Assembly (NCBI GenBank): GCA_964016885.1
Contig: OZ024750.1
Span: forward strand, 2,852,001 to 2,916,000
Direction of reading: 5' to 3'
Length of the DNA stretch: 64,000 nt
Source: Eledone cirrhosa
Taxonomy: Eukaryota
Made by a program: the position numbers and the translations under genes. A model generated the notes under the pieces. The model had not been told where the DNA came from. It made no database searches and saw only the letters and a list, made by a program, of their open reading frames with translations. The stretch's first letter is position 1. Each line of letters opens with the position of its first letter. Positions 5,599 to 60,028 of this stretch are shown piece by piece.

Positions 5599-6078
5599 CT
5601 GATGACTGAACTGGACATTTGTGTAAAGATCGTCTTGTCTCCTGAAACATTTGGTAATGGAATAATTATATTGTGTTGTTTATTATGTAATTAAATAGCT
5701 CTGTACTTTACATAGAGCACTCTTCTTTCCTTTACCTGTTCTATGGAAATACTTAACATATATATATCTAAACCGATGCTGGCATGGAAGATAAACGTTA
5801 AACGATGCTGATGATGATGATATATGTTAGGTAATTCCAAAGGAAAAGCAAAGGAAAAAAGAGTGCTCTATGTAAAGTACAGAGCTATTTAATTACATAA
5901 TAAACAACACAATATAATTATTCCATTACCAAATGTTTCAGGAGACAAGACGATCTTTACACAAATGTCCAGTTCAGTCATCTGACGACCGATCTAGACG
6001 TATATTATTATCGTCTGTGATCCAGAAACCTTTGGTAATGGATTAGTTATATTTTGTGTTGTTCAATTTCTATTTAAA
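5599..6078. mobile_element. hammerhead-bearing Penelope-like/retrozyme-like family A, three pieces in alternating orientation within (TA)n
   Basis: 122-bp perfect inverted repeat 5601-5722/5861-5982; CTGAYGA...GAAAC..TTTGGTAATGG motifs; homologous to 55621-55860. Confidence 0.7.
5978..6041 (+). ncRNA. type I hammerhead ribozyme motif (family A, partly degenerate)
   Basis: tcat-CUGACGA-[stem II gauc-uagacg...cgucug-u-gauc]-GAAA-CC uuu GG-UA-augg. Confidence 0.5.
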
Positions 6079-7029
6079 TATATATATATATATATATATA
6101 TATATATATATATATATATATATATATAGGAAAAGAGACAGGACCCCGATGGCTGAGCTCCGACCGTTTTGACAGCTAGATCGGAATATATATATATTCA
6201 AATCCAGTATCAAACCATAGCCTGATAAAATATGCAAAGAAAGAAAAGTCTAATTGGAATTTTGATGCTCACAATATTAAATATGTTATGACTAACTTAA
6301 ATAAATAGTTAGAAATTTAAGAAAAGCAACTATTCACACAATATTAACTGTTTCATACACACCCTATTATTTTTCCTAATGTTTCCTAAATTCCTATTAT
6401 TCTTTACTGCCCATTCCAATTATTCTGGTACCAATGATACATTTGCAATCCCCTCACCACATCAGCTTCAGTACATCTTTATCATACTTTATCTTTCAGC
6501 ATATCTTTATCATCCCAATTATCTCTCTCTGCTTCCACCAGACATCTCACTTCCATTAATGAAGATATTATTATATCTTCCTAAAATATAACTATCTAGT
6601 TACATTTAACAATGCCAAAATGCTAATATCAAGAACTCTACTATGCTTCCAATTACCACAAACAATTTTCAAAAACCACAGAGTAAGTTCTGTTCGCTTA
6701 TGCAAGATACAAGATTTCACTTGAAAGTCTCATATTCTTAGCATTTCTAAAATCATTTGAAGATGACCTGGTTTCTGATTTAGAGGACTGAGAAGCTGTT
6801 CACTATCTCCAATGTCAAAATATATCAAATCACCATAATTTTTATATTTGCATTTCCATTCTTGCATAGGCTGAATGGATCCTTTTTAAAACAACATCTT
6901 GCCACTTGCTGCATTTCTTTGACATCTCTTTCATGAAGTCCTTCATGATGCCATCCCATACCTTATTCTAAGTATGGTATCTGTATCAGCAAGCTGCTCA
7001 ACATTACCAAACTTAGACCAATTACATCA

Positions 7030-7280
7030 ATTGTCAAGTCAAGAGTACTCAAACTATATGGTCATATAAAAAGATCAACTCATGGTGTGAGTAGGTTATG
7101 CCTGGAAGGAAAGTTGGTTGGTAAGAGAAGCAGAGGCTGGCATTCAAAACGATGGCTTGATAATGTCAACTTATGGACTGGACTTGATCTTTGCTCTTTA
7201 AACTCTGCTGTTGGTGATCAAACTTTGTGGAGAAAAATATCTCATGTTGATGCGCAGTCTGCAACTGGCAGAGTTTAGCA
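7030..7280 (+). mobile_element. RTE-clade LINE 3' fragment (end of ORF2)
   Basis: Translates LKLYGHIKRS...CLEGKLVGKRSRGWHSKRWLDNV, the GH..R...EG...G.R.RG....RW.D motif at the RTE ORF2 C-terminus. Confidence 0.75.
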
Positions 7281-55786: not shown

Positions 55787-58700
55787 ATGTTATAACATCT
55801 CTGTCTAATGAAACCTCTGGTAATGGAGTAGTTATATTTTGTTTGGTTCACTTTCTAAATATATATATACTCGAAATATGAGAGTTAGCTGAAAAATACA
55901 TAGGCCGAAAAGAACATAGACTGACTATCAAAGAGTGATGCTAGAGCTGTGAAATCTTGCATGTATTATTTTCAACTTTAACTAATATAGACTTCTTTAC
56001 ATTCTGATCCTTTCAGGACAATATTTCTAATGGAGAACATTTCCAATTGTTATTCAATTAACTTTGAAAATAAGCAAAAATTTGGAGGGATTTAATAAAA
56101 CAACTACTTCATCATTAAACTGATATTTAGAACATAACAAAAGATTCTTCAATAAAATGATGTTGGAAGGTTTCAATTTAGATATAAGGAATTTAAAATG
56201 GCTGGTTTTGCTGTCTCAAATGTGTTGGTCTGAAAAAGTTAAATGTAACATGGAGATTGTAGTCTTAATTTTCTATATATCAAACTTCTCATTTTTTGAA
56301 AAATGTTGTGAGCCAAAATAATTATAAACTTTGAGTGGAATATGTCCAAGTTTATGTTTGTAGAGATGCTAATGTGACGGGGAGGTAGAGGTTGGCAAGA
56401 AAGGTTGTTTCATTAACACACATGAAAAATATTCAAGGGTTAGAGATTAATTTTATGAATTTTATCACCTATTCCTCAAATATTTTTCAAAAGAAAGCTA
56501 AAGTCCCCACCGATTCGCTTGTATTCTCACAAACCATCAATAACAGAAGTTAGTCATTGAGGTTAAGTATTTATTCAACTGTAGCAAATTTTTTTGATTC
56601 TGTCTGATGAACATTTTCAGACATTAAACTTTATTTCTCTTTATTCAATAAATATTGCATTGAAGAATTAGTTCAGGTGGAATATAAAGTAACATAGAAT
56701 GTATTTAACTATGAAAATGTATTTTATAGTCTATTGTACATGTTAATTCGTCAAATAGTTTGGTTACTAGCACCAATGTATCTTCCCCAACAAGGAAAAA
56801 ATCTTAAACTAAAAAGAATTTTAAAAATCAAAAAAATTTAGAAAAGGATTTGTTTTGCTTCTAAATTTAAATTGATTTCAACATCTTTTGTTATAATGAA
56901 TTAATTTTTCAGTACAACATGCAATTGAAAATTTAAAATCATTAAAAAAATATGAAATGTCTAGTTAATTAAGCCTAGAAAGAGGTCTAGTTTAATCAAT
57001 ATAAGGTTAAAAAATTCATATTTCATAATCAATTTAGAAACGAAAAACAATTTGTTGTTCTAGATTGTCTCATGAGGATTACATGAAAAATGTATGTTGT
57101 CATGTTTAATTTTATTTGCTATCACTAATAAAAGAACAATATTGTATAAATGGAATGTAGCAGGAGGAAGAATAAAGAATTATGAAAATATATTTAGTAA
57201 GAGATGAAAATATGCTCATATGACGAAAAAAAATGTAAGAGACAATTCTCAAGTAAAATGGTGACCATGAAAGAGAAAAGAAAACTTAAAATCCCGAGAT
57301 TTATTAAGCATGAAAAACTGTTACTTTAAAATTAAAGTTAAAGTATGGGTCAATAGTCTAAGTACAGTAAGTATGTTATTTATAAAGAAGGAAGTTTTTA
57401 AAATAATTGTTTCTACTTTTGGCACAAAGCCAGCAATTATCCCAGTGAATTACTGGTACTTTATTTTATCAACCCTATAAGGATGAAAGGCAAAGTTAAC
57501 TTCGGCGAAATTTGAACTCAGACCGCAAAGGGACGTAACTCTATGCTGCAAAGCACGGCGTCCAACCCTCTACCGATAAATAATGTTACTGGATAATATG
57601 TGGAGACAAAGAAATTTGAAAATTTTGCAGTTCTGAGTTTAACACTTTTATTACCATATCTAACTTCTTTATACATGATAAATAGTTAATTAGAGATTTT
57701 ATTGAATAAGATTTCTTGCTAAGAACTGACCAGCAGATATCAAGTGTATGGTTGTATATAAACATTTTCCATTTTCTATATAGTTATTGTTTGACATTTG
57801 ATATCAACCAATTCTTTCATTTCTTTATCTTTTATTTTGACTACCATGTGTTACATTGATGGCTTGTATGTTAGCTGAGTTCTTGCTAACGTCAGTTAAT
57901 TCTATCATTTCCACTTGAAAGCTTTCATTGGTAATCTTCTTTACTATATATAATTATTTTAAATATCCATTAACTTGGACAAAAATGCTGATTTCAATAG
58001 ATTATACACTAACTCTGAGCATTTATATGCAAATATTATACAGAGTAACATATTGACAATCGTTATATGAAATAATAAACATAATATTAAAAGTAGAGTT
58101 GAACAAATTCGTTTTCAAACAACACTCCTCTTCCTCTTGAATCCAATATAGAGGAAGAGGAGTGTTGTTAGATCTGCCAATTCCATAATTCCTCTTTAAT
58201 ATTCCATTCAATATATTCTCAGAAGACAGATAAGGTGTTAAGTGTTATATTGCAATTATAGATATACAATCCAACCTGATATTAAAGTTGGAATACAATT
58301 AATCAAAATGATTTACTGAATATTTAAGAGTAGAATGGTGAACTGTAGGAAAGACTCACTGGAATATTTTCAATGCTTTCTAGATATTGAAGAACTAAGG
58401 TTGTGACCAGTCATAGAAAAATACTTCCATTTTGTTGTTTTTTTAATAATATTATTATATTCATCTTAAAACTAAACTCATTTTTAAAAAGAATCGTTGA
58501 ACCCTTTTGGTTTCTATGTCCTTCCTAATGCCAATCACATTTACAGAGTGTACAGGGCACTTATATATATATATATAAGCGCCCGGTACACACACACACA
58601 CATATATATATATATATATAAGAAAAGAGTCAGAACCCCGACAGCAGAGCTCAAGCTGTTTCGACAGCTATTTCTGGACTGAAATAGCTGTCGAAACGGC

Positions 58701-59891
58701 TTGAGCTCTGCCGTCGGGGTCCTGACTATTTTTCTATTACCCACTCTAATACCCAAGTATCGAGTGCTCTGGTCTGTTATGGTCCACCTGGTTCCTTACC
58801 ACACTTCCTTTGTTATATATATATATACAAACACATACACATACATATACACACATATATATATACATATAAGTACATATATATATATATATATATATAT
58901 ATATATATATATAGATGCCAAAAGGAAGTTGAAGTAGAGAAATACTTTGTTTGCTTAAAAAAAAAAAGAGTAATTGAATTTCTACAATTAAAAATGTAAA
59001 ACTTTTAGACTTAATCCAGTGATATTTTAAAATATCTTAAGATAATTAATTAGACTATAAGAGGCTAGCTTCTCAGGTAAACTAGTTATTTTTCTATCTA
59101 GGTAGAATGATAAAAATGAAGATTCCTTACCTAAAGAAATAATTATTTGCAATGGGACAGAAATAGTATTCCAGATAACAAGGAAACTATTACCATAGGC
59201 TCTTTAGGTACTTATTTGGTCTTAATTTAGGAGAAAAAAAAGTAGTAGTAGTACTTATCACAGTTGAGTGGGTTTTAATGAGAATGATATCAAGATAGAA
59301 AGCAATTGCTCCAAAAATTGAAGCAAAAAATCAGGTCTGCAAACACTTCTGTAATCTCCCTCCCTCCCTATGTGTGTGTGTGTGCATGTGTGTGTGCATG
59401 TGTGTGTGTGTGTGTGTGTGTGTGTGTGTGTGTGTGTGTGTGTGTGTGTGTGTGTATATATATATATATATATGTATTTATATATACATATACATCAGAG
59501 CTATAGTTTCACAGCTATAATATATATGTATCTATCTATCTCTATATATATATATAGAAACAAGTAGGACCCTGACGGCTGAGCTCAAGCCGTTTCGACT
59601 ACCCTAAGTATTGAGTACTTTGGTGTGTTATGGTCCATCTGGTTCCTTACCACATTTCCTTCGTTATATATATATATATATATATAGGTTCCCGAGTGGT
59701 GTCAGGGGTATCCATAGTTAAAAAAGGTACTCAATACGTTGGTAGAGTATAGACATCTGTATTATATGAAGAAAATACTTCTACAGGACTAGGATTGTTT
59801 CATTCGCATGATATTGTCAGGAGTGATTTCATATTAATAAAACATTTCTAATCTCTCTTTCTTTCTCTCATATATATATTTATTTATTTAT

Positions 59892-60028
59892 TTATTTATT
59901 AAAATAACAGATTAAAGTTTAAGCAAAGAATCACTGCTTTCACCCTTAACGGGATCTTCAGAAGATCCCGTTAAGGGTGAAAGCAGCGATTCTTTGCTTA
60001 AACTTTAATCTGTTATTTTAATAAATAA
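59892..60028. repeat. ~137-bp palindrome centred on a hammerhead-like core (family E)
   Basis: Axis at 59960 (GATCTTC-A-GAAGATC); minus strand reads CUGAAGA-u-CCC guuaa GGG-u-GAAA; AATAAA at the arm ends. Confidence 0.85.

Follow-up and report, generated by a model that had tools for sequence, protein, structure and literature searches.

The 64-kb window of the Eledone cirrhosa genome considered here (64,000 nucleotides of contig OZ024750.1, the whole stretch to which the coordinates of all pieces refer) contains 12 pieces of five short repeat families, designated A to E (Table 1), together with two further hairpins. A preliminary description had interpreted these families as unrelated hammerhead-ribozyme mini-elements colonizing (TA)n microsatellites; we consider their relationship to Penelope-like elements (PLEs) and, for family B, the distribution of the 5' ends of its insertions. 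Segments of families A to E were confirmed close to where they had been described, all five being repeated across the 3.0-Gb assembly around the window, in which TA and CA runs are abundant. Absent from the earlier listing are a B piece at 59556, part of a B-like arm at 6128 and two hairpins, one at 33605 and one at 45285; E was also seen to continue to about 60118. No PLE protein match was obtained within the 64-kb window, and most of its long open reading frames (ORFs) overlap tandem repeats.

First-look searches of the genome yielded at least 1634 candidates for A, 1760 for B, 2801 for C, 1384 for D and 20 for E. With the B tail alone as query, a DNA search gave no match, probably owing to the skipping of common words. 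Junction letters in the query sequences skewed the first-look DNA searches for B, A and E, and turn positions were accordingly read from an evenly spaced sample (113 stretches of 10 kb, 1.13 Mb) and from pattern counts. The sample contained 98 insertions (40 B, 28 E, 21 C, 9 A and no D), or about one per 11.5 kb, which bears out the high density of remnants previously put at about one per 6 kb. By extrapolation, there are approximately 10^5 B-type insertions genome-wide.

Table 1. Pieces of families A to E in the 64-kb window.
Positions	Strand	Description
5599..5761	+	Older A-type arm; CTGATGA core at 5599, reaches tail end
5822..5984	-	A hairpin, long inverted arm with tail
5981..6078	+	A hairpin, short direct arm; CTGACGA core at 5982, stem II base mismatched
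6128..6190	-	B-related inverted arm, partial; absent from earlier listing
15820..15940	-	C-type fragment; hammerhead 3' half only
19623..19826	+	B hairpin stub; inverted arm +39..+103, direct arm +39..+183; core 5' half missing
20186..20406	+	C unit; minimal hammerhead, core at 20296, single stem I mismatch; no ORF link found
45737..46164	-	D, PLE 3' region with complete U3-A8 hammerhead, core at 45826
46156..46240	+	D tail, reversed orientation, head-to-head join
46271..46487	+	B hairpin stub turning at +40
55621..55860	-	A hairpin; core of long arm at 55780, minus strand
58621..58814	+	B hairpin stub turning at +40/+49
59556..59665	+	B hairpin stub, arms not overlapping (inverted +58..+103, direct +111..+183); absent from earlier listing
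59892..60118	+	E hairpin stub; turn at start of hammerhead-like core (sense core CAGAAGA)

Hammerhead motifs of the five families

A hammerhead descriptor with a C3-G8 or U3-A8 core identified one complete motif in the window (family D, 45826, minus strand), versus one hit in 20 shuffled windows, and 31 motifs in the 1.13-Mb sample, versus 1, 0 and 0 in three shuffles. The cores are conserved among copies: TTGA(A/C/G)AA, with N7 as the free position, in 28 of 35 long B copies, TTGAAAA in all 23 D copies, CTGATGA in 32 of 40 C copies, CAGAAGA (sense) in 23 of 25 long E copies, and CTGA(C/T)GA in 10 of 12 A copies, whose stem II carries two mismatches at its base. The type I organization, with core and three stems, was found in long B copies, in D and in intact C copies, A and E being non-canonical. 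The five families with complete or partial type I hammerheads described earlier are real as families, but within the window D alone is complete: every B copy there lacks the 5' half of the core, the C copy at 20296 has a canonical core with a mismatch in stem I, the C copy at 15825 lacks the core, and the CTGAAGA of E (59961, minus strand) is a product of the hairpin junction. The minimum-energy structure of the ribozyme at locus L182, a long B copy, is a three-way junction, with a z-score of only -0.73 (not more stable than shuffles), and the folding z-scores of six motifs, from -1.36 to 0.55, were not significant. The Rfam search proposed as a check revealed no hammerhead in the window, only spurious microRNA-type hits, among 150 of 261 matches listed, and a genome search with RF00163 gave 18 hits, all from a sixth family absent from the window. 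At least eight more hammerhead-bearing families were encountered (L191, L195, L197, L214, L227, L234, L250 and L315-L332); many of them occur in pairs on opposite strands, and several have U3-A8 cores.

Cervera and De la Pena (2014, PMC4209133) reported the compensatory U3-A8 variant from Schistosoma PLEs and already noted opposite-strand hammerhead pairs 100-700 bp apart. By comparison with the minimal PLE hammerheads of that study, C is a typical minimal motif with a palindromic 15.2-16.2 pair, and B and D carry U3-A8; by contrast, B has a stem III of 5-6 bp, a stem II region of 54 nt and a monomer fold, E has U4A, and the stem II base of A is open.

Parent elements and their microsatellite flanks

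Long B copies continue upstream into a PLE ORF. Locus L182 is a complete B insertion, comprising (TA)n, an inverted 1.03-kb arm, a 516-bp pseudo-long terminal repeat (pLTR), an 80-bp tail, the ORF, a 3' untranslated region (UTR) with a terminal ribozyme, and (TA)n; its unit is 3551 bp long and its ORF encodes 716 amino acids from the first ATG, at +274 (positions in the family B element, +n, are counted from U3 of the L182 ribozyme core). The B parent (L182/L183) has a single ORF with a reverse transcriptase (RT) and, at its C terminus, a GIY-YIG endonuclease. Atlas neighbours of the protein carry GIY-YIG, RVT_1 and HTH_animal; a Pfam search of the whole ORF returned no family, GIY-YIG appearing with an expectation value of 0.12 for a fragment, and a PDB search of the full ORF returned no match. 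A genome search with the linker-endonuclease protein gave 49,578 candidates, and the 3' half of the B ribozyme lay 0.9-1.5 kb downstream at 22 of 30 such loci. D and E also follow related PLE ORFs, the B and E parents being 52% identical over 332 amino acids and the B and D parents 49% identical over 70 amino acids, so the families are unrelated at the DNA level only. Family B displays the anatomy of endonuclease-containing (EN+) PLEs, with a pLTR, a partial tandem, an inverted 5'-truncated copy and a one-sided tail, in agreement with the inverted pLTR copies expected from the preliminary description. The PLE origin put forward there, with extension of the copies as a check, is thus supported for B, with linked RT and GIY-YIG domains, and for D and E, with adjoining PLE ORFs; these three families are almost certainly end fragments of Penelope-like retrotransposons. 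Two side observations concern B. At G000:C1:91473211-91493764 and at L181, B units repeat in tandem about every 3543-3566 bp. At L182:2524-4881 (minus strand), the open frame already begins at +73 of the ribozyme region, some 200 bases ahead of the first ATG, so the B tail could be coding.

No PLE ORF link was found for A and C among the loci examined; A has the hairpin-plus-tail anatomy and C does not. Candidate links for A (L184, L032) were discounted or left undecided, being explicable by insertions lying side by side, and one for C, at L250, was rejected, as the ORF there has its own ribozyme and belongs to another family. Both A and C are nevertheless likely to be PLE end fragments. Family C starts with a CAAGATGGC-type motif, which may resemble the YY1 site of the human L1 5' end.

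The families clearly adjoin TA/TG-type microsatellites, as had been described. Canonical 3' ends touched (TA)3+ in 37 of 39 cases for B, in all four for A and in 20 of 27 for E, versus 8.5% of 20,000 random positions; those of C mostly adjoined mixed runs, with (TA)3+ in 2 of 11 and any TA/CA run in 10 of 11 (random 17%). The further suggestion that the elements spread (TA)n finds no support, because (TA)n is absent from both priming ends of the full-length B parent and just 68 of 2364 (TA)6+ runs adjoin a match to A-E.

The Naiad or Neptune affiliation guessed for these elements was off the mark. Naiads are described as lacking canonical hammerheads (PMC8557442) and have their endonuclease at the N terminus, and B has both a hammerhead and a C-terminal endonuclease. 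The B parent is placed instead by its motifs, its likeness to Hydra-1_Obim being judged by eye: the L182 protein carries motifs of the Hydra clade, namely RWR in place of RWK, DKT, a CxCX5C linker, no CCHH, and CxxC and CxH around conserved E and N. The linker is also visible in D, and DKT in E. In the account of Craig et al. (2021, PMC8557442), the Hydra clade shares with B the RWK-like motif, DKT, the CxCX5C linker without CCHH, the flanking CxxC and CxH, (TA)n targeting, a hammerhead near the 3' end, an inverted 5'-truncated copy and a one-sided tail, and Hydra-1_Obim of Octopus bimaculoides is listed with a (TA)n preference and C3-G8. The elements themselves are therefore of a known kind, Hydra PLEs with (TA)n targeting having already been catalogued for Octopus. 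B nonetheless differs in its unit length (3.55 kb, versus generally <3 kb), its tail (80 bp, versus 30-40), its U3-A8 core (versus C3-G8 in Hydra-1_Obim) and its approximately 10^5 extrapolated insertions, versus the small number of families described for the clade.

Two accumulations of 5' ends in family B

Family B has two fixed 3' ends, at +103 and +183, each with TA microhomology, and its hairpins generally combine them: 33 of 42 had one long and one short arm, three had two long arms, one had two short arms and five were unclassified, and the long-plus-short combination was present in all 15 hairpins of another set, overlapping the 42. This pattern fits what Frangieh et al. (2024, PMC11167929) showed for Poseidon, a PLE of Anolis carolinensis: priming at two internal sites and nicking of both strands. 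In that element, likewise, two fixed internal sites downstream of the hammerhead define the tail, targets are AT-rich and templates are mostly uncut. The arms were near-identical in 36 of 42 B hairpins. In hairpins L312 and L342, the two arms come from different B subfamilies, which suggests that a single insertion drew on two RNA templates or that conversion followed.

The 5' ends of the arms form a main pile-up at +37..+49. The farther-reaching arm ended at +31..+49 in all 16 B hairpins of the 1.13-Mb sample. Genome-wide, exact junctions (spacer of up to 10, one subfamily) numbered 6469 for arms to +49, 1469 for arms to +40 and five for arms to +27, and the +24..+47 stretch is intact in 2126 copies. 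The pile-up lies inside stem II and breaks off sharply on its upstream side, which is compatible with a physical end of the RNA; a transcription start would be the simplest such end and is the likely nature of +37..+49. An initiator-like heptamer occurs at +41, and some 29 bases upstream of it there is a TATA-like run. These motifs provide weak support, because initiator-like heptamers are common in the element. An internal promoter within the pLTR is documented for Penelope of D. virilis (PMC2377424). Families E and A also turn near their own cores. On balance, we lean slightly towards run-off at an RNA start as the explanation for the B hairpins.

A second pile-up coincides with the predicted scissile bond between C83 and G84. 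In total, 315 hairpins turn near +84. Rows listed by the pattern searches were the first by position, and the first 50 hairpins of this region were classified by hand: 26 had both arms ending at G84 with a non-native spacer, 13 were spacerless (compatible), two had one arm at +83, seven had a GTC spacer and two reached further. Hairpins with a single A/T spacer numbered 55 at +84, versus none at +85 or +86 among the 25 matches listed. Copies with a single arm, lying directly after (TA)5, repeat the peak. At 61 distinct places (first 100 of 236 matches listed), 34 started at +84, two at +85, three at +86, five at +82/83 and nine further up, with eight ambiguous; control positions +65 to +68 yielded 2, 2, 4 and 5 of 51 places (first 100 of 145 matches listed). 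The excess at +84 is 14.5-fold, or 9.8-fold once probable duplicates and potential cases of CpG decay are set aside. An origin of this class in CpG decay was rejected, as C83 is T in two GGGG-ending copies versus C in 144, of 190. The position of this peak at the predicted bond suggests that it was probably caused by in vivo cleavage by the U3-A8 hammerhead, run-off from ribozyme-cut RNA being the simplest reading. The +84 class is a minority (about 315 versus >6,000 hairpins), so cleavage would be unnecessary for most insertions, in agreement with the in vitro result for the Anolis PLE.

Proposed mechanism and alternatives

An account of all five families as PLE stubs in TA runs, with two primings running off the end of an RNA and the +84 class derived from cleaved read-through RNA, appears to us to have a good probability of being correct. 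By analogy with the lizard PLE in vitro, the enzyme would nick both strands of (TA)n and prime at both sites; two reverse transcriptions from the two fixed sites near the RNA 5' end would then run off and join head to head, giving the B hairpin. RNA starting at +37..+49 could not self-cut, because a start inside stem II leaves half the ribozyme out, and would yield the stubs of about 200 bp. Read-through RNA would hold the whole U3-A8 hammerhead and give rise to long and tandem copies, or be cut at the C83-G84 bond, the 3' product then generating the base-exact pile-up at +84.

Several observations weigh against this account, and some of them suit an alternative that we consider unlikely, in which the same PLE stubs have acquired both pile-ups through polymerase stalls or fold-back self-priming on uncut structured RNA, the ribozyme never cutting in vivo. 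A and C showed no ORF link, the initiator consensus YYANWYY matches 28 times in the 1220 nt of 3' UTR, and +37..+49 lies within the long stem II. A stall is possible at +84 because this position borders a G4 run, at its 5' edge, and lies two bases from stem III; polymerase stalls may account for the 41 hairpins in which both arms lie past +83, most of them with a GTC spacer. Cap-derived G and splicing of 5' ends were also considered as possibilities. There was no clean replication of the cut-site peak in other families: D gave one hairpin and no single-arm copy, C gave none, the family of the Rfam type gave six hits, five of them in one tandem locus, and the sites of A (8 hits) and E (32 hits) are confounded by AT microhomology. 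For Poseidon, Frangieh et al. (PMC11167929) report no RNA-seq reads ending at the cut site, cleavage unneeded in vitro and insertion unaffected by hammerhead mutants; they found no in vivo cut-site ends and do not treat head-to-head stubs or turns, whereas B has one peak of 5' ends inside stem II and another at the cut site. Fold-back predicts the near-identical arms seen here, and Arkhipova et al. (2013, PMC3846280) proposed self-priming on an antisense template to explain the junction palindromes of Adineta vaga Penelopes, which otherwise resemble B in their inverted pLTR, their tail into the ORF region and their TATA/Inr-like pLTR motifs. The B data favour two primings running off one RNA end instead. 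Both arms stop at the same base with one or two untemplated letters between them, which is too tight for a fold-back primer, and a few hairpins have arms of two subfamilies (L312, L342); the stop is at +84, rather than at +83 beside the helix, single-arm copies repeat the +84 peak, and the upstream edge of the main pile-up is abrupt (1469 versus 5).

The families might alternatively be independent, non-autonomous retrozyme- or short interspersed element (SINE)-like units amplified whole via ribozyme-made circular RNA. This is highly improbable, although C has features in its favour: a unit of about 230 bp, a shared 5' start near -111 in 20 of 25 copies, the core kept in 32 of 40, and a second C copy within 500 bp at 3 of 30 C loci. 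With this shared start and no hairpins among 21, C may be a non-autonomous unit. Another family, at L201, has a 592-bp tandem array with intact ribozymes. However, B hairpins lack half the core, and long B, D and E copies continue into PLE ORFs. The pieces are best regarded as truncated insertion products rather than the self-contained retrozymes previously envisaged, because there is no A-E tandem array in the window and B junctions vary from copy to copy. Non-LTR retrozymes (bioRxiv 10.64898/2026.07.22.740005) share with A-E type I hammerheads, PLE derivation and a non-coding nature, but need tandem units with an intact ribozyme in each, which the L201 family has and A-E in the window do not. 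The array (L201:555-2430, G000:C4:250000001+) is retrozyme-like: its 592-bp unit occurs three times in tandem, every unit has a complete U3-A8 hammerhead with a palindromic stem III, an inverted copy precedes the array and (TA)n ends it. An origin of the junction positions after insertion, by deletion of hairpin centres, or as assembly artefacts, is scarcely credible: perfect palindromes are generally known to be unstable, and the 13 of 50 spacerless junctions fit CG microhomology, but the existence of single-arm copies, the fixed long-plus-short pattern and the presence of untemplated spacers between arms that stop at one base all argue otherwise. Contig depth in a public run also drops about 20-fold upstream of the same boundary, a value that does not represent copy number and may come from the same sample.

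A broader reading can be entertained tentatively, with a chance a little short of even: the genome would be a fossil map of 5' ends, in which a promoter inside the element's own hammerhead gives a normal message unable to cut its 5' end and seeds tens of thousands of head-to-head stubs, and read-through RNA self-cleaves in the germ line, hundreds of insertions starting at the scissile bond of a U3-A8 ribozyme. Insertions of this kind would constitute genomic evidence that PLE hammerheads are active in vivo, and would allow such activity to be scored in any genome. The map of 5' ends in family B deserves to be followed, as it opens the in vivo role of these hammerheads to testing: cleavage assays and the mapping of RNA ends have a precise target in the base-exact excess at the predicted cut, and the sharp inner boundary provides a testable account of head-to-head PLE stubs. 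A literature search, with most subscription papers outside its reach, found no prior report of either 5'-end pattern. A 2017 paper on PLE hammerhead dimers may bear on these patterns.

Some minor observations concern the window itself. The inverted arm of the first A hairpin (5850-5984) is nearly identical to the adjacent older copy (5601-5740) and less so to its own direct arm, possibly owing to local gene conversion between neighbouring A copies (5599-6078). The TA-flanked hairpin at 45285-45520 has its match in the tail region of the L214 family, and another, at 33605-33690, lies outside families A-E. Finally, a 72-bp minisatellite is present at three scattered sites, in both orientations (7560-7704, 42153-42876 and 54264-54567).

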